From Okamejei kenojei (lineage: Eukaryota), in NCBI GenBank assembly GCA_035221665.1, contig CM069147.1, forward strand, positions 25,854,001 through 25,918,000: a DNA stretch of 64,000 nt, given 5' to 3'. Of this stretch, positions 6,193 to 57,875 are shown piece after piece. Below the pieces are notes generated by a model, which saw nothing but the letters and a program-made list of their open reading frames with translations, was not told the origin of the DNA and made no database searches. The translations under genes were made by a program, and so were the position numbers. How positions within the stretch are numbered: position 1 is the stretch's first letter; the number at the start of each line of letters is the position of its first letter.

Positions 6193-6759
6193 ATCTGTGT
6201 GCAGACATTATTCCAGTGACCTTTCCAGGATCAATCAATTTCAGTCTTCAGTGGTTACTCCCATAACACCAGGACTGTGAATGTTACCAGGAAAATGCAC
6301 ACTATTCAGTTCCAAATGAAGATCCACGGAGTGGGAACCAACATTTGCCTTAAACAGCAAATCTTGGAGAAAGCGGCAGATCTTTAAAGAATATTTGTTG
6401 TCTGCTGAGAGGGAGTAGCAGGGGAGCCGAGGGAGAATAAAGTGAACAAGACAAAAACAAATCCTCATCAGTGCTCTATCGAGAGTTTTTGCCGCCGAAA
6501 CAGCTGCCGGGGCACCTTGCATTAGCGATTCCAAGGCAGAGGAGTCGATAACTGAACTCCTCCCATTCTGAATCAATAATGTGTAGAGATGTAAGAAATC
6601 AGAAAATAATGATCAAGAGCATTTTATGGCTATCTTCACCTTGAAGAATGTCGTTTCTTATTTTCCCCTCTCGCTTGTGCCGTCTACCACAAGACCAGTC
6701 CTCCGTCACCTTTGCTATGCCTCCCCTTATATTCCTTCAGCGTGAAACATTCAGAGAGT

Positions 6760-6860
6760 GTCCTGATGGTGAGTCATCGACAAGCATCACACCCTTCGCG
6801 CCCAATCAGGAGGTTGGTTTATATTCAACTGACATTTCCTGCTAAGATAAGTCACTTGGG
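6760..6860 (+). promoter_or_regulatory. Candidate proximal promoter of the VJ-C1 receptor
   Basis: AP-1 site TGAGTCA (~6770), CCAATCA (~6802), ETS-like TTCCTG and AGATAA clustered 280-370 bp before the ATG; motif inspection only. Confidence 0.3.
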
Positions 6861-7027
6861 CACAAATCCATTTTCCTCTGCAACTCACCTCCTTCAGTGG
6901 TTTAACTGCAGCAAGTTGGACGCGCAACACGAGAGCACGTCGTATCACAAACAAGACCTAACCTTTAGGAAACTGCGATCTCCAACGAAACAACGTAGGT
7001 TTCTGGATAGACCAGATTATGTTCTAC

Positions 7028-7125
7028 GCCTGAAGAAGGGTCTCGATCCGAAACGTCGCCTATCTCCTTCGCTGCTTAGATGCTGATGCACCCGCTGAGT
7101 TTCTCCAGCCTTTTGTGCACCCTTC
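7028..7125 (+). mobile_element. Penelope-tail mini-element with hammerhead core (7030-7057), inserted directly before the receptor ATG
   Basis: CTGAAGAAGGGTCTCGATCCGAAACGTC...CTGAGTTTCTCCAGC; TSD TGTTCTAC at 7020-7027 and 7126-7133. Confidence 0.88.
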
Positions 7126-7134
7126 TGTTCTACA

Positions 7135-7180
7135 ATGTTAATCTATTTGTACCTTTGCGCGCTGTGGGTTTTTTATGAAG
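7135..7180 (+). CDS. VJ-C1 receptor exon 1: leader peptide MLIYLYLCALWVFYE
   Basis: ATG at 7135, 15 hydrophobic codons +1 nt, donor GAAG|GTAATC; phase matches the V exon acceptor. Confidence 0.85.
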
Positions 7181-10153
7181 GTAATCTTCCTCATTCTTCA
7201 GCGTCGCGCTGTCCTGTAGATCACCCATGTATCTACATACGATTAAACTATTTATTGTGTCTAAATTATATTTCATCGCAATATTTGTTTCTGTTTGGCA
7301 GTGGCTCCATCGACAATATCCCAGATCCCTAAAGCTAGCACGGTGATGATGGGAACAGATATCACCTTCGAATGCGTTACCAGTGAGATTCCGAACAAAG
7401 CAAGTCTGACTGTAAATTGGTGGAAACTTGGTGATGAAGGACTATTACAACCAAGTTCCCATGGCAGAAAACGGGTTATACAGTTGGAAAACGATAGGAG
7501 TTTGCTCAAAATCCTTGATGTCCGTGTCGCCGATTCTGGGATATACTACTGTAGTGTAGTTCAGCAACAAAAGGAGATTGTGAAAGGAACCGGATCCAGG
7601 CTTCGGGTGCATGGTGAGAGGACTGCAGTGCGGTTATGTCAAAGGGGCAGAATTAGTTAATTCCGCCCATCGAATGTACTCCGTTTCGGGGTTCCTGTTG
7701 AGCAACAGCTACTCCATAAAAAGTCAATGGGCCAGGTCAAGCTATCTTTAAATAATGCCAATAATAATGTCAACAGTAGTCTCTCTGTACTACATACAAC
7801 ATTTGAATAAGGAAAATGTTGCTATTTCTACAAGTATATTTGTAACGTCTGTCTGCCGTTGGTTGCTTAGATCATTCAGTTAGTGAACGGTAGATGATTA
7901 GAACGCCTGGATATATATTTGTTGGTATATATATAAGTGTGCGATTCATGTAGCACAAGAGGAATCTGAAGGCCAACGCGTGGAGTTCGGTAGCAATATG
8001 CGTTGTGATAATCTGGCAAATAAAGTATCCCATAAATCTATGGGAAGATTGCTTGTATTCCTCAAGGGCAAAGGTGAAAGGGTAATGGCTCAACGAAGCA
8101 AACCCCTGGGCAGGATACAACAGCATGTAAGCAGTCTTGGCCATCACACCAGTGCCAGAATAAATAGGTCTTAGAGGAAATGATAGGCACATTTGTCGGA
8201 AAGACATCTGGATTCCGAAGCTTATATCGAGGAGACATCGCTGAAACTTGGAATTTAGAAGATAGGAACATCACTTACTGAGAATTGTTTAATGCTACAT
8301 CGAATAGTAATTCGTAGAATAATACTAACTACCAGCGAACAGAAAAGCGGAATGAGTCGCTGTTGAAGTGCTATTCTCTGTGCAGACTTAATCAGGCTAA
8401 TAACCCGGTCGACTTGGTTTGATTTGAACAATGTAACATTAAAATCATCCAAATTATAGGCGAATTGTAGCTTGTTGATTAAAAAAAATGTTGCTTACAA
8501 ATAACCGTTGGATTTGCTGGGGAGCCCGTCAGCATTCATCTGTCCAGTCTAATTGGAAGGACTAGATTCTAAACTGGGCTGAAATGATAATTCAGATAAT
8601 CATTTTATTCTTTCTCGCACCCCACAGCTTCTCCAGAACCTGTCAGCCTTTTCCCCAAAGCGCCGGAAACAAACTCGTCCAATCTCGTCCTTGTGTGCAA
8701 GACAGGAGAGTTTTACCCGGAGTCTCTCACCTTCACTTGGTATAAAAATGACACCAACGTTGAGACTGGTATCAGCGCAAGTAAAATCCTGAACTCAAAC
8801 GGAACTTATGCAGCGTCCAGCAGCTTGGAAACATTGCAGCCGCCTGGGAGTGGCGCTTTTTATACCTGTCTGGTAACCCACCTCACACTTCAGAGTCCAG
8901 CTATGGCTATTTACGTTGATGCCAGTTTTAATCCGGGTAAGATGCTGGCGATGTTTCATGTGCTGACAATAGAGGCCGCAATAAACAGATTCATATTATT
9001 TTCATTCCTATTGCTATGGGCATGTGAATTTTGTAGAATATCCACCAAAGATAGTCGTTCTGCACCTGTTTCCAAAAAGAAGATAAATGCCAATAAAAGC
9101 AATGACAAATATGAATTACGTAAAAAGGTCATCATCAATTCTATGATGCCGCACAGTGTGTTGTTGGTAGAGCTTCTGCCTCCCATTTACAATCTGAAGA
9201 AAGGTCTTGACCCGAAGCGAACCCATTCCTTCTCTCCAGAGATGTCGCCTGCCCCGCTGAGTTACTCCAGCATGTTTGTGCCTCCCAGCTACAGTAGCCC
9301 GGGTTGAGTCGGCATGACCAAATTAATCCACTGTGGAATTTGCGTTTTCCCTATAAATGCACGGGTTTGTTCTTAGAACTCCCGTGCCCTCCGTGTCCCA
9401 AAGATGTGCCCGTTGGACGGTTAATTTCTCTGCAAATGTCTCCTGGTCTATAGGTTTGTATTGTAACCGGAAACAGGGGGAGTTAACGACAACATGGAGA
9501 GAGCAAACTGGGTCTGGTGGGAATGGGTGCATGGTGACGGATCCGGACAAGATGAGCCGTAGGGTCAATTTCTGAACTGATTCACTCTATTAACTAGTTG
9601 GCCTGAAAAAGAGAGAGGCAAATACATTTCAATCAATTTCTTCCTTCAATGAACTGACTACGGATTTTGGTCAGATCTTAAATTTTTTGTTATTTATTGA
9701 GAGATATGGTCAGAAATTTGTTTATATATTTTGTAAATCAAAAACTTCATTACCGTTGTTGACTCAAAGAAATTATAAAGATAATTGCTTGTTCCCATAA
9801 TGAGCTCGAGCTGTATAGTTCCAGCGAAATAAATATGAATAAAGTGAAACAATATCCATACATGTAATATTTTAAATTGCGAAGGATAACAGTCTGCGTC
9901 CATGACTTTGTTGTGCATACGCGGAAAGTGCACAATACACCACAAAAAATAGGCTTATCAAATTTGCTGCATAATTTTGTGGTACAACATAAATGATAAT
10001 TATTCCAAAGATGATTAATGCTGATGATTATTCTCGTAGCCAAAGAAAATACACATCTGTTCCTCTTGGTTTTTGGATGTACATTGAGCGTATGCGTTTG
10101 CCTTGCCATCATAGTTCTCAGGTGGAGAAAATGTCAATTCCGTAAACAGGAAG
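7135..10153 (+). CDS. Non-rearranging VJ-C1 immunoglobulin-superfamily receptor (antigen-receptor/SIRP/NKp30-like type I membrane protein); exons 7135-7180, 7302-7613, 8628-8936, 10040-10153; cytoplasmic exon(s) unresolved
   Basis: Four GT-AG exons, all phase 1, join into an open 260-codon frame: signal peptide, V domain with J-like G-x-G strand, C1 domain, hydrophobic TM followed by a basic stop-transfer segment. Confidence 0.9.
7302..7613 (+). CDS. VJ-C1 receptor exon 2: V-set domain with germline-joined J-like segment
   Basis: Acceptor TTTGGCAG|; ITFEC...VNWWK...LLKILDVRVADSGIYYCSV...KGTGSRLRVH (canonical C, W, D-x-G-x-Y-Y-C and G-x-G-S-x-L-x-V); donor G|GTGAGA. Confidence 0.93.
8628..8936 (+). 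CDS. VJ-C1 receptor exon 3: C1-set Ig domain
   Basis: Acceptor CCCCACAG|; LVLVCKTGEFYPESLTFTWYKN...NSNGTY...FYTCLVTH (C-x4-FYP, W, NGTY, Y-x-C-x-V-x-H); donor G|GTAAGA. Confidence 0.93.
9190..9295 (+). mobile_element. Penelope-tail unit with decayed hammerhead core, in receptor intron 3
   Basis: CTGAAGAAAGGTCTTGACCCGAAGCG...CTGAGTTACTCCAGC. Confidence 0.65.
10040..10153 (+). CDS. VJ-C1 receptor exon 4: transmembrane and membrane-proximal tail
   Basis: Acceptor TTCTCGTAG|; AKENTHLFLLVFGCTLSVCVCLAIIVLRWRKCQFRKQE; donor G|GTAAGG; not listed in the ORF track. Confidence 0.85.
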
Positions 10154-10211
10154 GTAAGGAAGATTCAGTGTAATTTCCTTCGGGTTCATTTAAAGAATAG
10201 AGGGAAATAGC

Positions 10212-10490
10212 GGGCGGCACGGAGGCACAGCTTTAGAGTTGCTGCTGTACAGTGCCAGAGACCCGGGTACGATCTTGACTACGGGTTTTGTCTGTACGGA
10301 GTTTGTACATTCTCCTCGTGACGTGCGTGCATTTACTCCGGGATCTCCGGTTTCCTCCCACACTCCAAAGACGTACAGGTCTGTAGGCTAATCGGCTTAG
10401 TATAATCATAATTTGTCCCTGGTGTGTGTAGGATAGTGTTAGTGTGCAGGAATCTGTTTCTGCACTGTATTTCTAATTTAAATTAAACTA
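10212..10490 (+). mobile_element. HE1-type V-SINE
   Basis: GGGCGGCACGG head, CTCCGGTTTCCTCCCACACTCCAAAGAC core. Confidence 0.88.
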
Positions 10491-10859
10491 AGTTAGTGAA
10501 AAACGAAGGCCAACGTTATATCCGTCATAATGACTCAATTAACCGATTAGTGGATACCCACGTATACAGTATTTAATATTGTTTTGTTGATTACAATTGT
10601 TAAACTAAGTCGGGGTAAATTCAACTTTTACAGATGTCATGTTTCTTTTATTTTAAACCCACGACTCCCAAGGGGTTACGGTAGTAGATATTTCGCAGTA
10701 TATGTTCACAATCGTATTATGGCGATAACGTAGTTTAAGAACGCTCTTCAAATGCCTTCCCTCCATGGATTTTACGTCACAACTGCTTCCGAGGACAGTT
10801 GGCTGCAACTGTTGTCCTCTTTCTACTGAACTCTTGCACATTGGATTGGAAGATTGGAT

Positions 10860-11275
10860 TGGATACATATAAATGACCTGGATATAAATGCAGATTGGGT
10901 TGTTGAGTAGGTTTATTGACGACACCAACACTGAAGGAAATGCTGACAGTGAGAAAAGCAGTCAGATGATAGAGCAGGATATGGGCCAGTTACAAAAATG
11001 GGCGAAGAAATGACAGATGGGGAATAACCAGTGCAAAAATAAAATGTTGTACTTCGGGGGTTGAATGTAAGAGGGAAGGATATAGTTTATGATGTGCAGA
11101 GGTATCTTAGAGTCCAGCTTCATTGCTCACTGAACGTAGCAACACAAGTAGATAGGGTGGTAAATAAGGCGAATAGTATGCTTACCTTCAGTATTAGCGG
11201 CGTTTAATATAAGAGTCAATAGTCATTATGCAGCTACATAGGACTTTGGTGATGCCGTATTTTAGTATCACATGT
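10860..11275 (+). mobile_element. Degenerate CR1 RT fragment
   Basis: YINDLD...FIDDT..QLQKWAKKWQM pattern. Confidence 0.7.
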
Positions 11276-11362
11276 TGATGGGAAATGTTCGTAGTTACGA
11301 GTTCAAATATGGGCCCGTGTTTCGATTTCTGCTATAATTTCATGTCTTCTTCTCAACTTCAG

Positions 11363-11415
11363 GTAGCACTCAACTGCTTGAAAAGCCAAATTATATCTGG
11401 GGAGTGGGCTTTTAA
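11363..11415 (+). CDS. Candidate cytoplasmic/terminal exon of the VJ-C1 receptor (GSTQLLEKPNYIWGVGF*)
   Basis: Good pyrimidine tract TCTTCTTCTCAACTTCAG|, open in phase 1; the 3' part runs into CR1-like sequence; an alternative candidate is 12925-12968. Confidence 0.35.
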
Positions 11416-12301
11416 TGGCGATGTGCGGGCAAGGTTTTTACGCAGAGAGTAGTGGGGGCCTGGAACACATTGGCAAATGTCCTGGCAACATCTTCGTAAA
11501 TATCTCTGCACCCTATCCAACTGCAATAATCATTTTTAAACTAATTAAATACCATATGAAGGAAATGTATGCCCATGCGAAAACATGAACTGCTTCAAAA
11601 TCTATACAATTCTTTAGAAACTCATCAGATGCTTACGAACAAGACCTGATTCTGCGATTCTGTCCGCCCAATACTTGTCACAGTTATTCCAAATCTAATG
11701 TCAACAGGCTAACGCCAAATTGTTTCAACATTACCCTGGTCACGTTTTAACGCCTTTGAATACAACAAAACCAGGACAAGCATTTCCCTTCCAACATTCT
11801 TCAATATAATCTTTCGTAACGATTTTAGCGATCATTTGAACGATTGAATTATGTGAAACAAACACGGAGACAAATGCGGTTTTCTCCAGAACAGCGAGTG
11901 GAATATTCCTTTTGCGAACCATTTGGGCGACTGTACACGGTTGTGAACTAACTACAAAATCCATTGATTTTATAGATCATGAAGGAGGTGATTGAATATA
12001 CGCCACACCATCGTAAATGGCACAGGCTTTATCAAAAGATAAGAACGAAAGGCTGTGAATAATCTGTTGATATCCACTTGAAACAAGGAACAATGAACGA
12101 TGAATTCCAAATAATGTAGCAGGACAAATAAATAATTGGATGAGCTGGAGACTACATTAACCTGAACTAGACGAACTGCCATCTGTTAATAAAAATGTCA
12201 ATGTGGCATTCTGACAACTTCAAATTAAAGCGGATTATTATTTATTGCGCATTGCACACGCGCGTGTGTGTGTAGCTCTGTGTGTGTGTGCTCGCTTGTG
12301 T

Positions 12302-20619: not shown

Positions 20620-23600
20620 ATGCTTCTTTGCTCTTCAACTGTGACCTCCTGGTTCTGGACTCCACCAACATGGGGAACATTTTTCCTGCTTCTAGCATGT
20701 CCAATACAATGTTATGTTTTAATATGATCCCTTCTCATCCTTCTAAATTCCAGTGAACAAAAGCCCAGTCAATTCATTCTTTCAACACATGTCCATCCGC
20801 CATCCCGGGAATTAACCTGGTGAACCAACGCTATACTACCTCAATAGCAAGAATGTCCTTCCTCAAATTAGGAGACCAAAACTGCTCACAATATTCCAGG
20901 TGCCGTGTCACCAGCGCTCTGTACAACTGCAGTAGGACCTCCTTACTCTATCAACTCAAAACCTCTCGCTATGAAGGCCAATCCATTAGCTTTCTTCACT
21001 GCCTGCCTTTCCTGCATGCTTACTTTCAGTGACTTGATATACAAGGACACTTGGGTCTCGTTGCACCTACCCTTTTGCTAATCTGACACCTTTTAATAAT
21101 AAAAATTCCTTCTTGTTCTTGTCACCAAAGTGGATAACCTCACATTTATCCATATTGTACTGCATCTGCCCACTCACCCAACATATCCACGTCACTGTGC
21201 AGCCTCATAGCATCCTCCTCGCTGCCACCCAGTTTTGTCTTCCGCAAACTAATAGATGTTACATTTAATTCCTTCATCTAAATTGTTAAAATAGATTATA
21301 AATAACTGGGGTCCCAGCACTGAGCCTTGTGTCACCCCACTAGTCACTGCCTGTCAATCTGAAAAGGACCCGTTAAGTCCTACTCTTTGCTTACCAGTCA
21401 GCCAACCAGTTCTCTATGCATGTCAATACCCTACCCCTAATACGGCGTGCTCTAATTTTGCACACTAATCTCTTGTGTGGGACCTTGTCAAAGGCTTTTT
21501 GAAAGTCCAGATACACCACATCCACGGGCTCTCCCTTATCCATTCTACTTGTTATGTCCTCAAAAAATCCAGAAAATTAGGCAAGCATGATTTTGCCTTC
21601 ATAAATCCATGCTGACTTTGACCGATCCTGTCACTGCTTTCTAAATGCGCTGCTATTACATCTTTAATAATCAATTCAAGCATCTTCCCCACTACACAGA
21701 CCCATTGTCTCTGCCTGTTCATGCCCCACCGAACACTTTCCACATAACTTGACTCCATCCTATCCCCCTTGGTTAAATCCCTCCCCACCTACGTTCAAGC
21801 CACCTCAGACACTCTCCGTCATCTCCGCGCATTCCATTCTCCAGGCCCCCATCCTCTCATCTTCACCATGGATGTTCAGTCACTCTACTCCTCCATCCCC
21901 CACCAGGATGGTCTCAAAGTCCTCCAATTCTTCCTTGACCAGAGGAGCAACACATACCCGTCCACTGACACCCTCCTCTGCCTAGCAGAGTTGGTCCTTA
22001 CCGTCAATAACTTCTCTTTTGACTCCTCCCATTTCCTCCAAATACAAGGCGTAGCTATGGGCACATGCACGGGCCCCAGCTACGCCTGCCTCTTTGTCGG
22101 GTACGTCGAACAATCCTTGTTCTCGGCATACCAGGGCCCCATCCCCGACCTCTACCTCCGTTACATCGACGACTGCTTTGGTGTCACCTCCTGCACCCAC
22201 ACACAACTGACTGACTTCATCCATTTCACCAACAACTTCCATCCGGCACTCAAATACACCTGGACCATTTCCGACACTTCACCATCTCCATTGCAGGGGA
22301 TACACTCCTGACCGACATCCACTACAAACCCACTGACTCCCACGGCTACCTGGACTACTCTTCCTCCCACCCTGCTTCCTGTTAGGACTCCATCCCCTAT
22401 TCCCAATCCCTCCGTCTACGCCGCATCTGTTCCCAGGATGAGGTGTTCCACACCAGGTCATCACAAATGTCCTCATACTTCAGAGAACGGGGATTCCCCT
22501 CCCCCATAGATGAGGTTCACACCAGGGTCTCCTCCATACCCCGCAACACTGCCCTCTCTCCGCATTCCCCCACTCGCAACAAGGGCAGAGTCCCCCGGTC
22601 CTCACATTTCACCCCACCAGCCGGCACATACAACGCATAGTCCTCCGCCAGTTTCGCCACCTCCAACGTGACCCCACCACTCACCACATCTTCCCATATG
22701 CCCCCGTCTGCCTTTCGCAAAGATCCGCTCCCTCCGCAACTCCCTTGCCAATTCTTCCCTTCCCTCCCGCTCCACCCCTTCCCCGGGCACTTTCCCTTGC
22801 AACCGCAAGAGATGCTACACTTGTCCCTTCACCTCCCCCCTCCACTCCTTTCAGGGACCCAAGCAGTCCTTCCAGGTCCGACAGAGGTTCACCTGCACCT
22901 CCTCCAACCTCATCTACTGCATCCGCTGCTCCAGATGCCAGCTAATCTATATCGGAGAGACCAAGCGGAGGCTTGGCGATCGTTTCGCCGAACACCTCCG
23001 CTTGGTCCGCAATAACCAACCCGACCTCCCGGTGGTTCAGCACTTCAACTCCCCCTCCCATTCCGTATCTGACCTCTCTGTCCTGGGCCTCCTCCACGGC
23101 CAGAGTGAGCAACACCGCAAATTGGAGGAACAGCATCTCATATTCCGCTTGGGGAGTCTGCATCCTCTTGGCTTGAACATTGAATTTTCTCAATTCTGTT
23201 AACCCTTGCTGTCTCCCGTTCCCACCTCTCCCTCAGCCTACGGGCGGCTCCTCCTCCTTTTTCCTTTCTTCTCCTCGCCCCCCCCCCCCCCCCCCCTCCA
23301 CCAGTCTGAAGAAGGGTTTTGGCCCGAAACGTTGCCCATCCCCTTCGCTCCTTAGATGCTGCTGCACCCGCTGAGTTTCTCCAGCTTTTTGTGTACCCTC
23401 GATTTTCTAGCATCTGCAGTTCCTTCTTTAACACTGATGTTAGGCTAACATCTATGATTCTGCTTTCTCTCTCCCTCCTTTCTTAAAAAGCTGGGTTACA
23501 TTTACTACCCTCCAGTCCACAGGAACTGATCCAGAGTCGAGAGAACTTTGGAAAATAATCACCAATGCATCCACGATTTCCAGGGCCACTTCCTTGAGTA

Positions 23601-34000: not shown

Positions 34001-37000
34001 GGATATTGTTGGTAATCTCCTTCAGATCCTGCATATGTGTCCTGCAATCAAAACATGACTAGGACGTGAGTTGCAGCTTCCTTGCAGATCACAAGTATAA
34101 CTCAACAGTAAGCATGTGCCAAACCCGGGGGCACAGTTCATTCCCCAATAGTCAAAACTACCCATCAACACACAGAATAATGCCACAGAGAAATGGGCCC
34201 TGTCAGCCCACCTTGTCTATGTCTACCATGATGCCTCCTATGCCACTTACCTGAATTAGGCCTGTAGCTCTCAATTCCTTTCCTATCTAACCATCTGTTT
34301 AAACGTGGTAACTGCCTCCAGCTCCTTTGGCAGCTTGTTCCAGTTATTCATCACAATATGTGGAAAAAAAGACAGAACTCCAAATTTCTCCACTCTCACC
34401 CCAAATTTACTTCTCGGCTCTCCTACCTAGTAAAAAGACAATCTATACTACATATGCCCCTCATAATTTCATAAATCTCTTGAGGTCACCCCTCAGCCCA
34501 TCTCTCTTGTACAGGTCACCTCTGACACAGTACAGATCTCAATGATCGAAAAACCTGAACTACTGCTCCCAGCACCAGGTTCTCAACAAGCACTCATCTG
34601 TCTTATCTTCCTATTCATACCCTCACTAACCATATACAATATCCCAAGAATGTAATTAGCTCATTCCCAGGTCAACTACACCATTTGTGGATGGCAAAAA
34701 CATTTTCCCTGATTACCAACAACCCTGGAATATCTCAGCAAATGAGATTAGAACGTTAAATATACATAGCTCAGAAACTGAGATTCTTTTGTCTTATATG
34801 AAATGACTAATAGCCTCCAAGGATGGAGTTTATCAGCACTCTCAAATGAAAATTGGATTTTCACTAAAGTGAAAATGAAATACTGAAAGAATAATGTGTC
34901 ATTAATTACAGTTACGAAGCACAAGTCACCCTGTGCTGCAATAACACAATGATTCAACGATTTATTTTCATTGTCTGATGAACGTTACCTGATCAGCATG
35001 TTGCGCAAAATGGAGAAATCACAATGGTCTCCATTTTCAACTGTGAAAGATTGAGAAAAAATTAAATCACGTTTCATCCTCATCATACAGACATAGGTAC
35101 TCATCCTACTCTAACAGGGCTGACCTGCTTATTAGCATCAATATTTCCCTTTTTGTTATGTAATAAACAGTAGTCTAGAGTCTGTATTTGTGCTTTTGGC
35201 ACTCATAAACAGGATGCAGTGCAACGGGATTTAAAGCATGATTGGGAAATGTAATATATTTTATTTTATATATATACACACACACACATATATATATATA
35301 TATACGCACACACACATATATATGTATATATATACACACACACACACGCGCGCGTATATATGTCTAGTACATTGTGTGATCTAACACCGATAAAGCCAAT
35401 ATTTTGCTGATTTGTGCAAAAGCTGTTAAATCTATGAACTTTATCAATTACAGGGCGAAAATTTGTGGGGAGAAGTTCCAGGATCCAAACACAGTGTTCA
35501 ACGCCTTCCAAGCTTTGTTTGTCCAATTTATTTCTTAATAATATTCCAAAACAAATGAAGCCACCTCAACTGTATATTTATCAAGTTAATTGCAAAATGG
35601 TTTGCATCACTTTGTTGCTGTGTCACTGATCAACTGAGATTAAACTGAATGGTCAAACTAGATTGTAGGGTTTATTGCTTTGTCCACCTGTGCACTGGTT
35701 AAAGGTCGAAAGCCGAGGTAAATAGTCAGATCCATGCAGTCTTTGACACTGAAAAGTTTAAAAATCTCACATGCACAATTCAGGCTCAACAGAACTTTTA
35801 CCTTCCGCCACTCCCCATGGATACTGCCGACCTCTGACCTTTTTCCCACTGACCTCAAAGACAAGGTTGCTTCCAACGACTGCCAGGGGTACACAATCCT
35901 TGGGAGAGAAGAAATTATCATGAACTTTCATATCTATCCAGGTAAATGCAGATTCATCATGAGTGTAGGATAAACAGTGGAGGCCGAAGTGGTGATCAGA
36001 CTATGATTTTCAAATGGTGACAAATCGGGTATCCAGTGTCTTGTACTGGAGTACTACGGGCAAATGTGGATGTACACCCCGAACAATTTTTTCAGTTTCG
36101 GGTCACAACAATGGTGTCATTCACATTCATTATTACCTCCCTTATGTTTCTCTAATTAGAATGTAATATGCATATGTAATATTTCAAAATGGTGAGTCAC
36201 TTATATTATTGAGTGACACTGATTCACAAAGCTTGCTTTGCTGAAAGTCAAGTATGGAGTACAAAAGAAATTATGATCTGAAACTACTCAACAAAGCTAT
36301 GACAAACCCACACTTGAAAGCGTGTGTGCAGGATTGGCTCAGTACTTATTTCATAAGTTTTAGGTACATAAATATGCCATTCGGTCCATCAAGTCTACTC
36401 CGCCATTCAATCATGGCTGATCCATCTTTCCCTCTCAACCGCATTCACCTGCTTTCTCCCCAAAAACTTCAAGAAAGATTTAACTGGACATGAAGCACAG
36501 ATCCAGTGTGTCAACCTGCAACAACATGAAATGAGTTTGAACTGGCTATATCTGAACTCACTGAAACATGGAAAAAAAATTAGAGGAAATACCATTGGCA
36601 CCTAAAATAGTGTAAAATGCATGAATAGGATCAATACAAAGAAGGCTGATTCTTCTGCTACGAGGTCCAAGAACCAAGGGCTAGAATTTCAGGATGAGGG
36701 TCCATCATGCATGGCGGGCGAGTAATCACAGATGAGGATAGATCATGCATGGCAGGCGAGTAATCTTTGAAATTTTCTATCCCACAACACAGTGGACTTG
36801 AGTTGCTGGGTATAATCAAGGGTGCAGGATAGATTTTTAGCCACAAGGTGTGGAAGTAATGAGCTGTTCTTCCATTTTGTATTTGTATGGACAGCACTTC
36901 ACACTGTGGGAATCTAACCTTACTCCAGTGAACATACCCTACTATAAATAGGCCTGGTGCTGGTGTGGTCCATAGAGTTAAGAAAACAAGTTACTAAACA

Positions 37001-40000
37001 CAAAGAAGTGCTTGTGAACTCAAGGCTACACTGAGACATCCTCATGTTCCTACATGGATAAGGAAGCCCGCTTTTCCGTGGAAAGTTACTGAATACTGGA
37101 TCACAATAGTTAACCCTGTAAACACAAGACCACCCGTGCCCCCTGCAGCTAGCAGCCTGAAATGCTGTAGTAAATGGGGGGTTTTTGATTGGCTCAGCGA
37201 GAGGCCAGTGGCGTGGTCTGCTTGAAAGATGAGATAGAATAATGTCAAGATGCCCTTGTATTATGTTTGACATATTAATCATCTGTTGTTGAATAAGATT
37301 AACATTAACAAAATTTATAACATGACTATTGAAATAATGAATATGCATGTAGCAGATGGTAGTAACAGGAAAACATATAACCAAGGACAAAGTATGTTTT
37401 CGTATAATGACATTGAACAAAAAAGTTTACTGCACAGTATAACTGTCGGCTAATTCTGCTGCAAAGATAGAGAACTGCCACTATCTCTCCATGATATCAT
37501 ACAATAAAGTCTATTGAAGCAAACCTCAAAGTCTCAGTTTTTCCTTTAATTTTCCTCGGTCAATTTCCTCGACACTAGGTTAAGCAAAGGATAGGGTGAT
37601 CAAGAAAAATATGTGCAAGGTGATGACCTCGACAAACAGGAGATCAAGGTTGAATAGCTGCTCTGATCACTCTGATTTACGCTTCACAAGTCTAATTGTT
37701 CTAAGATCTGATAAGAATTCTAAGATCTGATAATAAATAAATAAACCAAACAAATAGACAAGCCAAATGGACTGTAGATAGATAGATAGATAAATCAATA
37801 AATGGATTGAAGATCATGGACAAATAAAAAATGAGAGTGCATACATTAACGGTTACCTATAAATTTCACTAGGAACATAAACGTTTCCCTTGGCAGCACG
37901 TTCCAAACATCCACCAACCAGTCTCTGTAAAAATCTTACTTCGCACTTCACCTTTAAATTTTGTCCCTCTCACCTTAAAGCTACGTCCTCTAATCTAGCA
38001 TTTCTACACTGGGATAAAGACTCTGGCCATCTACCCTATCTATGCCTCACATAATTTCATATACTTCTATATACTTCCTATGCTGTGCTGGTCTATATGG
38101 CAATTAATATATTCTATGCGCCTCATAATTTTATATACTTCATAATATTATATACTTCGATCAGGCCGCCCCTTAGTCTCCAAAGCTCCAGTGAAAACCA
38201 TCCATGTTTGTCCAACCACTTCTTATAGCCAATACTCTCTGATCCAGACAGCATTCGGGAGCTTAGATCGCCGGCTACGGGAGCTTCGATCGTCCCGACT
38301 GCAGATGTTTCGACTGCCCCTACCGCAGGAGAATAAAGAGGAACAAGATTGGACTTTATTGCCTTCCATCACAATGAGAACAACGCCATGGTACTGTCCC
38401 ATTTGGCAGGAGGCAACTGGTGGCATTCTCCAAGGAACTGATTCATAAGTGAGCTTTGAAATAGGTAAGAGGGCGCAGTTCCAGGTTTGCAAACAAAGTC
38501 GGGCTCAGTAAATGAAAATGTTGAAAAAGACGTGCAGGTTAAGGTTCGAGATGTTTCATCAAATACTCCCTGATTAGAATGTAGTGAGAAACATTCCACA
38601 TAAAGTTCATAAGTTATAGGAGCAGAATTAGGCCTTTTGGCTCATCAAGTCTGTTCTGCCATTCAATCTTGGCTGATCTATTTTTCTCTCAACCCCATTC
38701 TCCTGTCTTCCCATAATCCCTGACACCCTTACTAATCAGGAATTTGTCAATCTCAAAAGGGCTCGGAATGGACAGAAAGACAAGTCGGCATTTACCTTAA
38801 ATTTCTTCACCAATTTATTATCATCTTCATCTTCTGTATTTGGGAATTCATAAATCTTAATCTTCTGTTCTTTGATTTCCTTCATAATCTGTGGAGAAAA
38901 GAAAATTCACAAGAATAGCAAAAACGCTCTGACGGTACGTGTCTCAATCAATGCTTATCAATACAAATGCTAACTTTATAAAGAGTCAAGGCAAAACATA
39001 CAATTCCCCCACTCATCACATTGGTCTGAATCACCATCTGACAAGAGAATGCTCTTGATATGATTTGACAAGAATAACATTGAAACAGATAGACACAAAA
39101 AGCTGGTGTAATTCAGCTGGCCAGGTAGCATCTCTGGAGAAAATAGATAGGTGACGGTTCAGGTCAGGACACTTCTTCAGGCTGACTGCAGGGAGCAGGG
39201 ATTAGAAGCAAGAAAAGACCAGGATTAATCAGGGCCGATAACACACAACCTCAGGCAAGGTGGTTCTCTGATAGGCCAACTGTTGGGTAGGGTTAACTTA
39301 CTTTTAATGGAGGAAAGCGGTCAAGGAGGGGAGAGTGGGTGTTTGTATGGTACCTAAAATTATAGAATTCAACATTCATACTACTGGGTTGTAAGTTACC
39401 CAAACAAAACATGAGGTGCTGTTCCTCCAACTTGCGATGATCATGGTTACAGTGATCACCCAGGGGGAAACCCTGGTAATACAGTGTCCACCCCCCGGAA
39501 CAGTCCCTGGTTACACAGTTACACAGTAACCACCCATAGGAACAGACCCTGGATATACAGTGACCACTGATTACACTGTGACTTTCCGGCGGACAGACCC
39601 CGATTACACTATGGCATCTAATACTGCTACATCACCGGGCATTGCTTTACCTGTTTCTTGAAGTGGTAGCACTCCTCAGTTGTGAGTGTGTCCGCTTTAG
39701 CAATAAGTGGAATGATGTTCACTTTCTCATGTAAACGCTTCATAAATTCAATATCCAGAGGCTTCAGCCTGCAAGAGAGTGGGAGAATCTAACTGAGAGT
39801 TGCAATAGGAACTGTTGCATTAAAGAAGCAGTGAACATCATTCTTCTCTCCCTGGCTGCTCACATTCAACGTTCCTCTAATATATTCCACCCTTCGCACC
39901 AACTATGGCTCTCTGACTAAACGTTTATTTCACCTCTGCGCAGGTGCAGTGTCTCGGAATGGGGTGCAAGAGGACACGTGGACCAGAGCTCAGGTTAGTA

Positions 40001-43000
40001 AATGGCGGGAACGCTTGTGGCACATGTGAAAGTGTGCGAGTGGCTGAGCAGAAGTGGGAACGGGTTGTAATGGACAAGGCCAGGAGTGAGGCCCAACTGT
40101 GGACAGACGAGGCCGGGAGTAGGGCCCAGCTGTGGATAAACGAGGCTGGGTGTGAGGCCTAGCTGCGAACAAAGCAAGGGGAGGAGGGAGATCCATCTGT
40201 GGATGCAGCGAGGATGGGGGGTGGGGTCCAGCTGTGTAGACGATATATTGTGTTCAATTCTGGACACATTTTCTGGATGTGAAGATTTATGAGAGCATAC
40301 ATTAAAGATTGCAGAAATGATAACTGGAAGGCGATCCCAGAATGGTAATTAAAATTACGATGAGTCGTCTTCATGGTTGTGAGGAGTTCCCACATTTTGG
40401 CAACTAGTCGCGGCCTCATTATGTCGGTGAGAATTTTTCAACATGGTGAAAAATTAGCGGCGTCCAGAATGAAGTCGCAATGGAGATTAGCGAGAATTCT
40501 CGAGCCGTAGGTCGGTCGCCAGGACGTCTTAAGGTTCTCATAGGTTGGAGCCGGGGCTGATTGGTGAATTTCATTGGCTCATTGGGGGAAAAAGGTAAGC
40601 AGTAGTTTTCAGAACCAAGGAACTGACCGGTAATGTTAAATGTCCGCGAACTTCACAGCCGTGTATCTCTCGCTTCTTAAAAGTTGTCTCTACTCCTCGT
40701 TACTCCTTCTCCCTCATTCTCCCCCCCCCTCCTCTTTTAAAGGACTTACCGTACACTGTGCTTTAGCTCTCTTAATTACAGCGCCAACCTTCCCGTTCAT
40801 CACGGTGCGTGTCTGTATGACCTTGGCTTTGCACCGTGGGAATTTTTTAGACAGCGTTNNNNNNNNNNNNNNNNNNNNNNNNNNNNNNNNNNNNNNNNNN
40901 NNNNNNNNNNNNNNNNNNNNNNNNNNNNNNNNNNNNNNNNNNNNNNNNNNNNNNNNNNNNNNNNNNNNNNNNNNNNNNNNNNNNNNNNGTCGCCGTTCCA
41001 ATTCCCGTTTTTTGAGCCAACTGCTGGCAACTCCCATGCAAATCTCACCCGTGTCCTGAGGGTGCAATAAAGTACAGGCAGCAGTGCACTCGCGTATCTG
41101 CTATCTGTCGCCGGTTCACTCGTGACTCAGAGTTCAGGAATTCCTCAAATCTGCTGTCGATATAATTTACAACTGGCTGCCAACTGCAAGGAAACCAGAA
41201 AGATTACAAATCAATAATAGACACCATCAGCACTTTGGGTGCTTTCTTACACTTGCATGTTTTCGTTTACTTTAGAGATACAGTGTGGAAACAAGCCCAT
41301 CGGCCCATTGTCCGTGGAACCAAAAAACACCCGTACACTAGTTCTATCCTGCACACTAGGGATCGTTTACAGAAGCCAATTAGCTTACAACCCTGTACAT
41401 CGTTGGAATGTGGGAGGAAACTAGAGCACCTGGAGAAAACCCACACGATCACAGGGAAAACATACAAACTCTGCACAAACATCACCTGTAGTTAATGCTG
41501 AGTGATGCTCTACCTAGAGCTTTTCAGTGTACTACATCCAGATCCAGAGGATCTCTGGCGTTGCAAAGCAGCAACTCTATCACTGCGCCACTGTATTTTT
41601 TTCTTTTAAAATCTGACAACTTTCCAAGATGGCAGTTATAATTATAAGATACAAGAGACGGTGTAAGTAAAATCTGAAACTACCAATTACTGTTGTCCAC
41701 CGCATCTCCAAATCCTGGGGTATCGACAATAGTCAGTGTAAGCTGCACTCCTCCTTCTTTAATTTGAACCTTTGCGTGTTCAACCTGGAAACAAACAGAT
41801 AAACTGCATTCAGGCCACTGAATACCATGTCTAAAGCTAACACACATTTACAGTGAAAGTGGCAAGAGCAGGGGTATGAGCAAATTTCAAGAACAAAAAA
41901 GGAAAAGAAAAGGCAGGCAATCATTCAATGGTACTTTGTCACGTGTACCCAAGCACAGTGAAATTCGTTTTTGCATACCGTTCAGTGACAATCCTGCTGG
42001 ACATTAGGCGTAATATAATAAATATAAGAGTGTAACACAGTGGACCATACTGAGTCTGTACACAACAGTTACCACATTTTTTGTGCCATCTTCGTGGAAC
42101 TCCAAGTACTTCGTGGGAGTCAGCATGCAGTTGATGGTTCCAACAAAGCATAAGGATCTACACGAGTAGACAAGTGCCCAAAATATTAACCAGGCATATT
42201 CACTAAAGCTCAAATAAGTCAGGATCTGGTGAGGCTGGACCACAGATAGGCCATTGAAAAGAGCAGGGTGTTCAGAAATCCCAACACACATACACACAAA
42301 ATAAAGCACTCCACAAGCAACAAACACATGAAGAAACAATCACACAAATTATACTATTGGACAATGTGGAGTTGCATCTGTCAACATGAATTCTAATCCT
42401 CATGAGGGTACACAAAAAGCTGGAGAAACTCAGCGGGTGCAGCAGCATCTAAGGAGCGAAGGAGATAGGCGACGTTTCGGGTCGAGACCCTTCTTCAGTC
42501 TGAAGAAGGGTCTCGACCCGAAACGTCGCCTATCTCCTTCGCTCCTTAGATGCTGCTGCACCCGCTGAGTTTCTCCAGCTTTTTGTGTACCCTCGATTCT
42601 CCAGCATCTGCAGTTCCTTCTTTAAAACTCTAATCCTCATGACATCAGTCGATCAGACATTGAAACTGCTTTCTGATTATCACCAATTGCTAGCCTTCAG
42701 CTGATGACACAAGACTTCACATTGATTTGGACTAGGGAAAAGTAGGGAAAACACCAAGGACGTGCAATGTAGTGAAGACAGATCATTCAATATATCATTA
42801 AGAATATCTCAGGAGAACCGTCACTGCTTCAAGATGCACAAATTGTGAAAAGTAAAGCTGTTTCACTAGGTGTGCAGCAAGTGGTGAGAGAATTAGCAAG
42901 GGATGACCAAACTTCACCCATCCACCATCTCCAGATGTATGTGCCCATGACAGTATCAAGAATGACCACTGCACAGCCATTGTGGAGACAAACTCCCATC

Positions 43001-46000
43001 TTCGCACCAAGGGTAACCTCTACTTTGACAAATTGGATACATTTAGAGTACACCTCGCAGCTAATGAAACACTATAAATCATCTGGCATAGAAAATGGTA
43101 CTATGTCACAAACTCTCCTGCAGCACACAGTGGATGAAGAAGCTCACAGCCAACCGGCAAATCGCCTGTACAGTTTAAGAAAATTAAGGAAGATAAGCAA
43201 CATCTATGAAAAAATAAATAACTTGCTTTTTCTTTTCACAGATGCTGTCTGAGGTTTTCCAACATTTTCTACTTTTATTTAACATTTCCAGAATCTGCAA
43301 ATTTTTAATTACCTGTACAGTTTTCTTGATCCTAAGTGACGGACCAGGATATTCCTTGGAGTACAGGTCTGACAGGAAGAGGGAATTGATCAATGTTGAT
43401 TTGCCAAGGCCCGATTCACCTGAAGGGAAAAAAAAAAAATAACAGTACAGATAAATCTCAACCAGGCATCATAGGGTTAGATGTGGACACCCAACACAGG
43501 TCACCCTGGATGCGAGTCATGCAATGGGTCTTTTCCAAACGGCCAGTCGACTGGATGCTGCAGTAGTTCACTTGTACAACCTTCTCATTGTAGCTTGAAC
43601 TTTGCCTACTCTGTACATCACAAACAATAAATGGAACACAGCACGAGAAATAATTCATACCTAGCCAAAGCAATTGCTGGCATGCAATCCAAACCTAGAT
43701 GGGTTGGTTGGTAAATTTGCAAATTACTCCAAGATTGCTGGAGTTGTGCGATGAAGGCTGTCAAAGTAAAGTGAGATCTAGATCAGCTCAGAAACAATGG
43801 GTAGAAAATACCTGGATTAGAGGTTATGCACTATAAGGAGTGATTGGACAGACTTGGATTGTTTTATCTGGAACACCAGAGGTTGAGGAGGGACCTGATG
43901 GAAGTACAGGTCCCCCACTGATTTTCCAGCACAATGTCAGTCTCAGAAGTTGGCTATAGGAAGGGATTTGCCGGCTGCAGCTGGGCTGGAGTTCCAGATG
44001 CCCCAAGCACAGGGGGAAAATTTGTCCTGCCGATCGGAAATCCGGCCGCGAAAGCCATTTATGGGAACAGATCGTCCAGTCCGGAGTTCCAGAGCCCTGG
44101 CCGCATGATGAAAATTTGACCCACTGATCAGAAGTCCATCCACGAAAGTCCCGATGAGGTCAAGATGGACCACCTCGCCCATCCTAAGCGACATATTTTC
44201 AGGGAGGGACTTCCGGGGGGGGGGGTTCAAATGCGATCTCGTAATTTTTTCCATATTAAAGGAGGTGTCGGACCATCAATACTAGAAAGCATAGATGTAT
44301 TGTGAGAGGGGTAAAGTTTAAAGGAGATTTACAAAGGGTGATGAGAGCCTAGAATGCAATGCTGGGTGTGGTACAACAGGCAGATACAATAGTGGTGTTT
44401 AATAGGCTTTTGAATTGGCACATAGATATGCAAGGAATGGAGAGATGTGGATTATATGTAGGCAGGTAAGAGTTTGCGTTGGCATCACGTTCCGCACAAA
44501 CATTGTGGGCGGAAGAACCTATTCCTGAGTTGTTCTATGATCTAAAAGCGTCATCCTGATAAATTGAGTAAAAAATGTAATTTAGATGGGTTTAACTCAT
44601 TGTAGGCTGATTTTAATGTACAGGGCGGCAAGGAGGCGCAACAGTAGAGTTGCTGCCTTACAGCGCCAGACACCTATGTTTGATCCTTATTACGGGTACT
44701 GTCTGCACGGAGTTTGTGTGTTCTTCCCGTAACCCGAGGTGTTTTCTCTGGGATCTCCGGTTTCCATTCACACTCCAAAGACGTATTGTTTGTGGGATAA
44801 TTGGCTTGGTATAATTGTAAATTGTCCCTAGTGTGTGCAGGACAGCATTAGTGTGCGCGGATCGCTGGTCGGCGCGGACTCAGTAGGCCGCAAGGCCTGT
44901 TTCCGCGCTATATCTCTAAACAACAGGTACTTTGGGGTACTTTACTTATATATCCTACTCCAACCCTGTCTGTGGCCTTCTGCACTAATAATACTGCCAA
45001 CTTGAGAATCTCATCTTGTGTTTCAGCACACTGCAGCTTTGAGCTCTCAATATCAAATTCAACAACTTCAGGTAACCTGCTTTCTCTGTCGAGCGAGCAA
45101 AATCATTTATCTGTGATATTGATTTTGTGTTTCCTCTTTCCTTTAGCATCACCAGACTTGCTGGCACATCTTAAGAGTCCAGCAATTCAGGACCTTTATT
45201 TCCCTTGTCTGTTTTCATGCTCTCTAACTGCCTGCATTTTACAGCTTTTATAAGCAAATTATAATAGTTTGTCCTCCATCAATCCATCAGTCAGATGACC
45301 AAGTTTACACCTTATCCCCATGGGCAATCCTGGCCTCGCCCTTTGACAGTTGTCTTATCCATCGTTCACCCACCCTCACAGTAAAACAATATAGATAGTT
45401 CTGCTGTAACATAATACATGTTCACAACCGATTTTCCAGCAACTGAAACAAAAACTGGAAATCCTGGAAACGCTCATCAGGATGGACACATTTATGGAAA
45501 GACAAAGTCAAAAAGCCTTTTGGCAGTACTGAAACAAAGAGAAAACAAGTTAGTTTCAATTGCGGTGAAGGTGGGAAAGAAAGAAGCAGAACAAACAGAA
45601 TCACTATTTGGTCGAGATCAAATGAGCACAAACTGCAGTTAGTCAGCAGTATTAAGCATCGCAAACAGAAAAGCTGAGGGACACATCTCGCAGGCAAGAT
45701 TGCGGAGAGGGATGTCTGGCAGAAATATCCCATTCTGTGGCAGTCCTCATAAAAGTATTCCAATCTTGATATTGGAAAAGAAGTTCCAGGATTTCCACCC
45801 AAAGATAATACACAAACAGAGGTATTGTTCCAAGTCAGGACAGTGCTTGACTAGATGAATCTGCAGGTAATGATGCCCCATGAAGCTTGCTGCCAATGTT
45901 ATTCTTGATGTTCATAAGGTCATAAGGAATAGGAGTTGAATAAGGACATCCAGCCCATCATGTCTACTCCGCCACTCAATCATGGCTGATCTATCTCTCC

Positions 46001-52628: not shown

Positions 52629-53860
52629 TGTACGGGCATATAGTGATGGCCCTGTTAATATCGAACCCTCGCGATTAGCTGGCGCGGGTCACATGAGCGC
52701 GGGAGCTTTTTCGCGGGTTTTTCTGTTAACCACTCATTCCAGCATCACGCGAATAGAATAAGCATCGTTTATATTTGGCTGTCAAACTCGACTCGGGTGA
52801 CAACTTTATTCTCGTTTTAAAATAAAGAAATTTGTATACCCTACCATCTCGACTTGCCAAACTGGTGACCCCGCTAGTCCGATCGGAATTCAGACTCTCG
52901 ACATGCAAGCCGCCGCCATCCCCGATGCCCTGCAAAACGCTGTGGGCCTCAAACTGCCCGTTTCCTGGGCCGAACAGCCTCAGGTGTGGTTTGCCCACAT
53001 AGAGGCCCAGTTCCACCTTCGGAATATCGTGGTCGACGACACCCGCTATTTTTACGTCGCTGGGGCACTCAACCAAGAGAAGGCTATGCGGTGGCTGCCG
53101 TACCTACAAGACCCACCGGCGATCGGCAAGTACGAGGGCCTCAATGCCCTACGGAGCAGTAGGGCTCAACCACCGAGAAGTATCTTCGGGCTCAACCGCC
53201 GAGATCGCTCCGCCCGCCTGCTCCACATGGACGGCCTAGGTGATTGGAAACCATCCGCCTTGATCGCGTTGATGGACGGCCATCGACCCTGCCTGCTTTT
53301 CGAGTAGGCGTATCTCAAACAAATGCCTCAAACGACATCAGCTTGCTGCTCGCCCGGTCTGACTTCACAGACCCTATGCAGCTCGCAGAGTGGGCCGACG
53401 AATTGTGGCTCGCGAAACAGCAGGACGTCGGGTCCATCAACCGGGTGTCCGAGCCCGCAAGCCAGCAGCCCCGCAGAGATGCCCAGCCCTCCGCTGCCAT
53501 CACCGGGGTAAGCGGCAGTGGTGTTTCTACCACCTCCGCTGGGGCGCAGAGACCCGCCGATGCCGCCCCCCACTGCACGTTTACGGGAAACACCTCGGCC
53601 GATCGTTAGTAGGGCCTATCGCGATCGGCCAAAACAACCGCCTTTACGTGCGAGACCAGCATTCTGGACTTCGTTTCCTGGTCGACTCCGGGGCCATCGT
53701 CAGCATCCTCCCCCCGACTGGGCTGGACAACCGTGCTGGTAAGCGAGGCCCTGTCCTGACTGCGGTCAACCTCAGAAACCATCCGCACCTCCAGCACGTG
53801 GACCCTATCCCTAACCTTCGACTCCCAACCATATGAATGGACCTTTATCGTCGCGGACGT
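52629..53860 (+). mobile_element. Ty3/Gypsy LTR retrotransposon (CsRn1/Kabuki-like), 5' part only: LTR, tRNA-Trp PBS, gag, protease
   Basis: ~230-bp LTR with AATAAA (52821), PBS TGGTGACCCCG at 52863-52873, gag AVGLKLP..W..WFAHIEAQF, CHCC-type motif WCFYHLRWG..RRCRPP, protease FLVDSGA; stops and frameshifts. Confidence 0.88.
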
Positions 53861-54038
53861 GGAAAGAAACTGCAGATGCTGGTTTACACCGAAGATAGAT
53901 GCAAAAAGCTGGAGTAACTCAGAGGTCGGTGGGGCTGCTGCGAGATGGCTGCCCTGCCAGCATCGTGTTTGTCATTTCTACTTTTTTGGAGTGTCTAGTG
54001 TCAGTTTGCGTGTCTCTCGGTGTGTCTTATGTGGGGGG

Positions 54039-54069
<31 letters not shown>

Positions 54070-54204
54070 AGAGGGGAAAGGGGGAAACCGCTTTTGGCCG
54101 CCTCCTCCAGGGAGAGGCGACATTTTCCATGTCGCCTCCCTCGTGGTCTAACACCATGGATTGGAGCGGCCTTTCCCGGAGTCGGGTCCGGTGCATCGGC
54201 AGCA

Positions 54205-55245
54205 GGCGTAGGGATTAACGGGTTTCTTTCTGAATGGCAGGCAGTGACTACTGAGGTACCGCAAGGCTCTGTGCTGGGACCGCAGCTATTTACAATATAT
54301 ATTTATAGATGATGAAATTACAAGTAACATTAGCAAATTTGCAGATGACACAGAAGTGGGTGGTAGTGTGAACTGTGAGGAGGATGCTATGAGAATGCAG
54401 GGTGACTTGGACAGGTTGGGTGAGTGGGCAGATGTATGGCAGATGCAATTTAATGTGGATAAATGTGTGGTTATTCACTTTGGTAGCAAAAGCAGGAAGG
54501 AAGATTATTATCTAAATGTTGTCAAATTGGGAAAAGGGGAAGTACAACGTGATCTGGGGGGGGGTCCTTGTTCATCAGTCAATGAAAGTAAGCATGCAGG
54601 TACAGCAGGCCATGAAGATAGCGAATGGCATGTTGGCCTTCATAACATGAGGAGTTGAGTATAGGAGGAAAGAGGTTCTTCTGCAGTTGTACAGGGCCCT
54701 AGTGAGACCACACCTGGAGTATTGTGTGCAATTTTGATCTCCAAATTTGAGGAAGGACATTCTTGTTATTGAGGGAGTGCAGTGAAGGTTCACAAGGTTA
54801 ATTCCCGGGATGGCGGGACAGTATGCTGAGAGAATGGAGCGGTTGGGCTTGTATACTCTGGAATTTAGAAGGATGAGAGGGGATCTTATTAAGGGTTTGG
54901 ACACTCTAGAGGCAGGAAACATGTTCCCGATGTTAGGGGAGCCCAGAACCAGGGGCCACAATTTAATAATAAGGGGTAAGCCATTTAGAACGGAGATGAG
55001 GAAACACTTCTTCACACAGAGAGTTGTGAGTCTGTGGAATTCTCTGCCTCGGGAGGCGGTGGAAGTCGGTTCTCTGGATACTTTCAAGAAAGAGCTAGAT
55101 AGGGCTCTTGAACATAGTGGAGTCGGAGGATATAGGGAGAAGACAAGAATGGGGTAGTGATTGTGGATGATCAACCATGATCACATTGAATGGCGGTGCT
55201 GGCTTGAAGGGCCGAATTGCCTACTCCTGCACTTATTGTCTATAA
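54205..55245 (+). mobile_element. CR1 RT and 3' end
   Basis: VPQGSVLGPQLF, KFADDT, FFTQRVVSLWNSLP. Confidence 0.9.
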
Positions 55246-56424: not shown

Positions 56425-56519
56425 TCAATCTAGTCCGAACTCAATGTCCTCAATGTTGATACGTCCTAGTTCCATATTTGCTAATTCTTCTTGAATTTGT
56501 TGATCTTTTGGGTCAGGTT
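56425..56519 (-). CDS. Probable last coding exon of an unidentified upstream gene (...PDPKDQQIQEELANMELGRINIEDIEFGLD*)
   Basis: Acceptor ATCTTTTTAG|, protein-like acidic C-terminus, TGA, AT-rich 3' UTR with AATAAA at 56275-56270. Confidence 0.6.
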
Positions 56520-57589: not shown

Positions 57590-57875
57590 AGTGAGTAGAG
57601 CTGCTGTCTCAATCCTGACCGTGAGTACGGTCTGTGCAGAGTTTTCACGTTCTTCCTCTGACTGTGTAGTTTCGTCCGACGTCCCAAAGATGTGCAGATT
57701 GATAGGTTAAATGACCACTAGAAAATGATCATTGCATACAGCTGACTGATATAATCAGTGGGTTGATGGGAATGTGGGAAAAATAAAAGGGGATTAGCAC
57801 AGGATTTGGGTAAATGAGTAGCTGCTGATTGGCACAGACACAGCCTGCCAAAGGGACTGTTTCCATGCTAAGCTC
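57590..57875 (+). mobile_element. Degenerate V-SINE
   Basis: Partial head, core and tail. Confidence 0.55.

Follow-up and report, generated by a model that had tools for sequence, protein, structure and literature searches.

Near the start of the window (the whole 64,000-nucleotide stretch of Okamejei kenojei DNA analysed here) lies an intact, real and conserved gene of five exons which encodes a VJ-C1 membrane protein whose likely role is to tune a family of innate receptors and not to serve as a T-cell receptor (TCR) or antibody chain. The main result beyond the gene itself is the family that surrounds it, about 24 VJ-C1 genes on the same contig (C17), among which members predicted to be inhibitory and activating are paired. 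We provisionally regard these genes as a chondrichthyan paired-receptor family that has apparently gone undescribed. Innate leukocyte receptor families of cartilaginous fishes are poorly charted, and some 24 VJ-C1 genes with inhibitory and activating twins make a candidate NK or myeloid self-recognition system. The family also adds to the unsplit VJ-C1 genes that are relevant for the origins of antigen receptors, beyond UrIg and PRARP.

Gene structure, orthologues and transcript support

All exons of the gene lie on the plus strand. The leader exon (7135..7180) has its ATG at 7135 and a phase-1 donor, with the rest of the split leader in the next exon, and its N-terminus corresponds to those of XP_055504728.1 and XP_032892404.1. 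A single exon (7302..7613) holds the VJ-type V domain, which is short, ends in a GxG strand lacking F/W, and scores 41.1 bits against Pfam V-set (cut-off 26). The C1-set exon (8628..8936; 56.2 bits, cut-off 21) carries three N-glycosylation sequons and a hydrophobic GFC face, through which a C1-C1 dimer is predicted, and it is followed by an exon (10040..10153) encoding the stalk, an uncharged transmembrane segment (TM) and a basic juxtamembrane stretch with a Cys, again with a phase-1 donor. The reading frames are free of stops, AG/GT marks the internal junctions and every intron is in phase 1, so far exactly as the preliminary description, made from the sequence alone, had drawn these exons and their junctions, including the J-like strand at the end of the V exon. 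However, the position at which it ended the gene, 10153, is a splice donor, and it missed a last coding exon (11976..11995) that adds six residues and a TGA, without tyrosine, and that we infer from the fit to 266 aa and from the likeness of the tail to those of Pristis and Heterodontus. With this exon the protein is 266 aa long, as are the Amblyraja, Pristis and Heterodontus orthologues, and ends in a tyrosine-free tail of about 20 residues. Two candidate AATAAA polyadenylation signals, at about 12127 and 12188, would follow (12127..12193).

An alternative acceptor near 11363, or read-through of the TM donor, would likewise give short tails with no ITIM, and a search with a tyrosine-motif profile found no ITIM/ITSM-type exon within 54 kb behind the gene. 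The Amblyraja and Mustelus orthologue records have C-terminal exons that are short but different, so longer splice forms may occur. Each domain of the protein has two Cys, the stalk lacks Cys and the TM is neutral. The uncharged TM with three Cys was correctly noted by the preliminary description, but the three Cys are not a conserved trait, the five named orthologues having 2, 2, 2, 1 and 0. Immediately upstream, a high-copy SINE-like repeat (7030-7126) ends a few bases before the ATG, in what is presumably promoter or 5' untranslated sequence.

Five other species gave one orthologue apiece: the skates Leucoraja (XP_055504728.1) and Amblyraja (XP_032892404.1; both 87% identical), the sawfish Pristis (XP_051884567.1; 65%) and the sharks Heterodontus (XP_067906082.1; 49%) and Mustelus (XP_078066430.1; 46%). 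Each of these proteins aligns over all internal junctions. These orthologues form a clade (SH-aLRT 99 in a V+C1 tree) that includes no other gene of the O. kenojei genome, and their tails, of 13-23 residues, all lack a tyrosine motif. A Logan contig of 1,024 bases contains a 232-aa ORF, 87.5% identical, that spans the V/C1, C1/TM and TM/tail junctions, implying a spliced transcript in a close relative; three runs from the same species gave matches on repeats only. The automatic RefSeq label of the skate orthologues, MHC class II beta, was rejected because the first domain is V-set and not a peptide-binding beta-1 domain. The earlier reading of an intact, non-rearranging elasmobranch VJ-C1 surface protein with no charged-TM adaptor site is borne out.

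The VJ-C1 family on contig C17

The preliminary description took the gene for a little-characterised receptor and proposed a search for paralogues in neighbouring windows. What it overlooked is a paired family, predicted to be inhibitory and activating, of about 24 genes on C17, which the search brought to light. The V-exon search gave 24 matches among 71 candidates, every one on C17, where they form a group of 12 (20.37-20.76 Mb), a group of 11 (25.37-25.86 Mb) and a singleton (17.16 Mb). C1 matches fell on the same contig in 26 of 43 cases, and a clean C1 exon lies at most 15 kb behind the V exon in 23 of the 24 genes. The clusters also hold fragments and one C1 exon with no V. The lone member at 17.16-17.17 Mb stands 3 Mb from the first cluster; its C1 is divergent (26.5 bits) and its TM neutral.

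ITIM/ITSM-type exons were detected behind 11 of the 24 V exons with a profile built from other species' proteins, used in place of an earlier tyrosine-pair regular expression that proved noisy (13 hits, versus 3-5 in shuffled sequence). Candidate TM exons of eight of the 24 members carry an Arg near the outer end, the TM and tail exons of paralogues having been chosen by script and judgement and not from RNA. Three other paralogues lack both the ITIM exon and the Arg, and in one the TM was not found. Nine twin pairs share 79-99% identity over V and C1, and six of them (88-99% identical) join an ITIM member to an Arg member; the remaining three are one Arg/Arg pair, one ITIM/ITIM pair and one for which no TM was found. 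The Arg twin of one pair retains a decayed tyrosine exon. Such near-identical ITIM/Arg pairs point to a paired-receptor logic, as in SIRP. The window gene is the last of its cluster and has no twin, its best paralogue being only 38% identical, the lowest such value of the 23.

Family proteins of other species fall into the same three classes, with four-tyrosine tails confirmed in three of them, and a loose pattern finds an ITIM-like motif in 33 of 60 TM-bearing family proteins. The nameable members are all chondrichthyan, Callorhinchus included; of the remaining family-type representatives five were looked up, and bony-vertebrate members may exist among the others. At least six automatic RefSeq names cover the family (MHC class II beta, Ig lambda, TCR beta, tapasin-related, NCR3LG1 and SIRP). 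A literature search found no description of the C17 cluster, though mentions of the family may exist in Ohta 2019, in Fu 2019 or in the UrIg paper of 2023, supplements included. By term search, SIRP and NKp30 are absent from the PMC3964593 supplement.

Trees were computed under LG+G4; the family was represented by 13-14 members from this genome and by three others, and O. kenojei outgroups were named from their sequence. The family is one clade in both the C1 (100/99) and the V tree (99/98). The closest likeness in working is to SIRP, similar to which the C17 family has a single-exon VJ with no F/W before GxG, a C1 domain, clustered paired members and four-tyrosine inhibitory tails. The best C1 tree places the family adjacent to the first SIRP C1 (70/57), and the V domains of the two are ungrouped in the best V tree (AU p 0.26 for a SIRP grouping). 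In contrast, SIRP has two C1 domains where the window gene and its orthologues have one, and the activating C17 members carry an outer Arg, unlike SIRP-beta, in which a Lys sits mid-membrane. Tetrapod SIRP genes neighbour the SEP-domain (NSFL1C) and opioid-precursor (PDYN) markers; here matches to both lie on contigs C20 and C4 and not on C17. A coelacanth SIRP query gave no C20 match among the 122 of 236 candidates scored. Judged by these comparisons, the family would be SIRP-like in working without belonging to SIRP, as it has neither the two C1 domains nor the synteny. One-to-one orthology to a gene such as SIRPA or TAPBPL, which by the preliminary description would have refuted its reading, was not in evidence.

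Proposed function and dimer model

We consider it rather probable that the window gene, as the untwinned end member of this family of about 24, encodes a ligand-binding dimer that does not itself signal and that modulates the paired receptors; a tuning role is likely given the lack of a signalling motif and the position at the end of a paired-receptor cluster. Recruitment of SHP-1/2 by ITIM/ITSM and coupling of Arg-bearing receptors to adaptors are established immunoglobulin-superfamily biology. By the same rules, ITIM/ITSM members of the family would recruit SHP-1/2 and members with an outer-TM Arg would couple to an adaptor of the FcR-gamma/CD3-zeta type. Having no tail motif and no adaptor charge, the window gene's protein may by analogy act as SIRP-gamma, the tail-less neutral SIRP member, does among SIRPs, in adhesion or in competition for the family's ligand.

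The AlphaFold model of the Leucoraja orthologue is an ordinary V-C1-TM protein (pLDDT 87). With two copies of its ectodomain, ESMFold2 gave a score of 0.38, versus 0.08 for the best control, with 100% contact agreement between runs and pLDDT of at least 85. This passes the mark applied to such scores, which 21 of 30 microbial pairs reached, as did 17 of 29 eukaryotic pairs (animals 7 of 16), against none of 23 and none of 30 single chains respectively. Just one of seven eukaryotic pairs with no older relative reached it, and the pass may reflect memory of solved Ig-domain pairs. The predicted interface lies entirely in C1 strands C, F and G, whereas Ig and TCR C domains pair via the ABED face. 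If the model holds, the protein would pair C1 to C1 via the GFC face and leave both V domains free. Seven outward GFC positions, which were picked from the model and so make this evidence partly circular, are hydrophobic on average in 5.3 of 7 cases in six orthologues versus 3.1 in 23 paralogues, with 2.4 in 8 SIRP and 1.6 in 16 Ig/TCR/UrIg C1 domains. A glycosylation sequon, N160, lies inside the predicted interface and is present in five of the six orthologues.

The same face could instead join the protein to signalling members of the family, as an invariant partner chain in two-chain receptors with a light/heavy-like division. The gene is single-copy, conserved and tail-less, and in four paralogues, including the adjacent upstream ITIM gene and its Arg twin, the GFC face is likewise hydrophobic at 5-7 of 7 positions. 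We nevertheless think such heterodimers unlikely, as the interchain Cys is absent and 19 of the 23 paralogues have at most four hydrophobic GFC positions.

Alternatively, the product could be a genetically linked self ligand, much as CD200 is the linked ligand of CD200R; it would then be a tail-less marker with broad expression, which the ITIM members read and pathogens imitate. A short tail, a neutral TM, a single copy and the place at the cluster's edge would all suit a ligand, as would the V-C fold, which ties with those of B7-H6, PD-L2 and butyrophilin (Z 16.2, 15.8 and 15.3). That fold match is generic, however, with unrelated tandem Ig proteins reaching equal Z, and V, C1 and V+C1 trees all nest the gene within the receptor family, making a ligand role quite unlikely in our estimation. 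Neither VIA, with its ties among tandem Ig proteins, nor Foldseek, in which antibody light chains came out at a TM of about 0.35-0.38 with an rmsd of about 9, discriminates between relatives. The ESM Atlas returned generic V and C1 clusters. When single domains and profiles were searched against PDB sequences, multi-domain proteins crowded the results, which gave no ranking of relatives.

Likeness to antigen receptors and the duplication lead

The preliminary description gave the protein the architecture of a TCR or Ig light chain. The domain order agrees with this; the V length, the missing F/W-GxG, the missing interchain Cys and the position in trees do not. Cys-Cys spacing is 59 in the window gene and 54-59 in the family, compared with 71-74 in the V domains of Ig and TCR-gamma; of three UrIg-type V domains, two also have 71-74 and one has 67. 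F/W before GxG is found in none of the 24 family V exons, 15 of which have an N-glycosylation sequon there; the missing aromatic residue is the one used in V-V pairing. An interchain Cys after C1 is absent in the window gene. As far as sequence can tell, the resemblance to TCR and light chains is therefore superficial. The absence of recombination signal sequences (RSS) around the V exon was rightly claimed: a scan allowing at most one heptamer and three nonamer mismatches, with 12/23 spacers ±1, found none on either strand in about 6500-12300, while a stricter nonamer limit still recovers the 23-RSS V and 12-RSS J of the TCR locus on contig C4. A loose RSS-like match is all that occurs elsewhere in the family, in three of 24 V exons.

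Phylogenies of the V and C1 domains, also proposed earlier, put both outside the Ig/TCR/UrIg clade in the best trees, although AU tests reject no placement of either. In the C1 tree the family lies outside the Ig/TCR/UrIg group (94/76), and in the V tree outside a larger SIRP/antigen-receptor/NITR/CD8 group (94/80), with the bootstrap not settled. Trees constrained to group the family with antigen receptors are 9-18 log-likelihood units worse than the best (AU p 0.09-0.16). All 15 MHC class I matches lie on contig C30, away from the C17 cluster.

Several other known systems resemble the family in part. PRARP and the amphibian VJC1 genes (Fu 2019, Ohta 2019) are likewise non-rearranging V(J)-C1 membrane proteins. 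Such genes have ITIM-type tails and number one or two in bony vertebrates. In PMC11599192 and PMC10751288, PRARP is listed among joined-VJ genes, and the latter also cites it as MHC-associated. The C17 family differs, by description and not by sequence comparison, in its roughly 24 genes and in lying off the MHC contig. UrIg and UrIg2 share with the window gene an elasmobranch host, a single VJ exon, a split leader, C1 and no rearrangement, but differ in having at least three C1 domains, in being disulfide-linked homodimers and in their location in the MHC or the antigen-receptor complex (PMC12227049). The window gene has one C1, and in both trees UrIg/UrIg2 fall within the antigen-receptor clade and the C17 family outside it. 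On C30, the MHC contig, we observed a UrIg-like V-C1-C1-C1 gene at 31.38 Mb.

The NITRs of ray-finned fish, which have inhibitory and activating forms, are also clustered non-rearranging VJ receptors. Their second domain is I-type whereas that of the window gene is C1-set, and the V domains are ungrouped; an NK-type role is proposed for them in bioRxiv 10.1101/2021.06.11.448072. The window gene lacks the TM Arg of NKp30 and is not MHC-linked. The family's activating members do resemble NKp30 (NCR3), which combines a joined VJ with a TM Arg. B7-H6 (NCR3LG1) shares the V-C1 order and is the top structural tie, but B7-H6 and TAPBPL have a B7-type V with no J strand, unlike the GxG strand here, and form separate clades. 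An NKp30-like VJ exon (C30 15.25 Mb) and B7-H6-like exons on C18, so named from their sequence, do not belong to the family clade. The B7-H6-like exons are V-C1 exons at 26.18 and 49.8-50.3 Mb, interspersed with C1-like exons that are divergent, stand in arrays and in some cases have long inserts. CD28-family membership was set aside, CD28-family genes having a single V according to PMC11599192.

The flanks of the clusters offer one lead towards antigen receptors. A SEPT7-type septin gene (window 35803-43423, minus strand) lies 20-30 kb downstream of the VJ-C1 gene. The genome has two close genes of the SEPT7 group, and the other, 83% identical in the exon tested, lies on C4 at 81.73-81.77 Mb, 1.15 Mb from a TCR locus with a V-23RSS, a 12RSS-J, a Lys-bearing TM and a MENTAL-domain gene next door. 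We take this locus (80.57-80.60 Mb) to be TCR-gamma from the adjacency of STARD3NL in human; the sole V found in 48 kb is frameshifted and one J has an RSS. The other end of the 25-Mb cluster is flanked at 25.30 Mb, on the minus strand, by a 335-aa exon with a pyridine nucleotide-disulphide oxidoreductase domain, presumably OSGIN-like, whose one paralogue (50%) lies at C4 123.1 Mb. The chance of the SEPT7-TCR-gamma linkage is roughly 0.1% per locus and marker (2.3 Mb of 2,757 Mb), rising to several percent given a dozen antigen-receptor loci and three markers considered post hoc. The linkage is therefore a lead only, with no tree support.

On the strength of this lead, the gene could be a non-rearranging relic of the antigen-receptor precursor, sister of TCR/IgL and possibly a genome-duplication paralogue of TCR-gamma. 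The split leader, one VJ exon, C1, TM and phase-1 introns would agree with that, as would the failure of AU tests to reject a grouping of the family with TCR-gamma (p 0.10 for C1, 0.16 for V). We consider it very improbable, however, in view of the tree positions and the short V without F/W-GxG, and because the OSGIN-like paralogue is 42 Mb from TCR-gamma, ELMO has no match on C4, and TCR-gamma itself is argued, in PMC12227049, to have reached its site by translocation.

A wider scheme draws on markers shared between contigs (OSGIN-like on C17/C4, ELMO on C17/C20/C2, and SEP and opioid-precursor on C4/C20), which suggest that C2, C4, C17 and C20 are duplication sisters. The C17 cluster, TCR-gamma (C4) and tetrapod SIRP (the C20 equivalent) would then lie on sister chromosomes of one whole-genome-duplication quartet. 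All three would descend from a paired VJ-C1 receptor that existed before the duplication, outside the proto-MHC; in the C17 cluster its descendants would have stayed unrearranged and diversified in the germline, with the window gene as an invariant partner chain. We give this scheme little credence; if true, the paralogous position relative to TCR-gamma and SIRP would challenge a purely proto-MHC origin. Flanking synteny is thin, as Pfam searches of 150 of 1,662 candidate flank ORFs gave only the septin, the OSGIN-like exon, one weak coiled-coil match and retroelements.

Some further elements were observed. On C30, at 26.3-27.7 Mb, a dozen single-exon ORFs (450-1,200 aa) with a weak P-loop match to the septin profile form a tandem GTPase family. 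Within the window, 21670-23230 holds a fragmented reverse-transcriptase element with a GIY-YIG-like end, which we take to be Penelope-like, and 52800-62100 holds the remnants of two Gypsy-type LTR retrotransposons in opposite orientation, with reverse transcriptase, RNase H and integrase.
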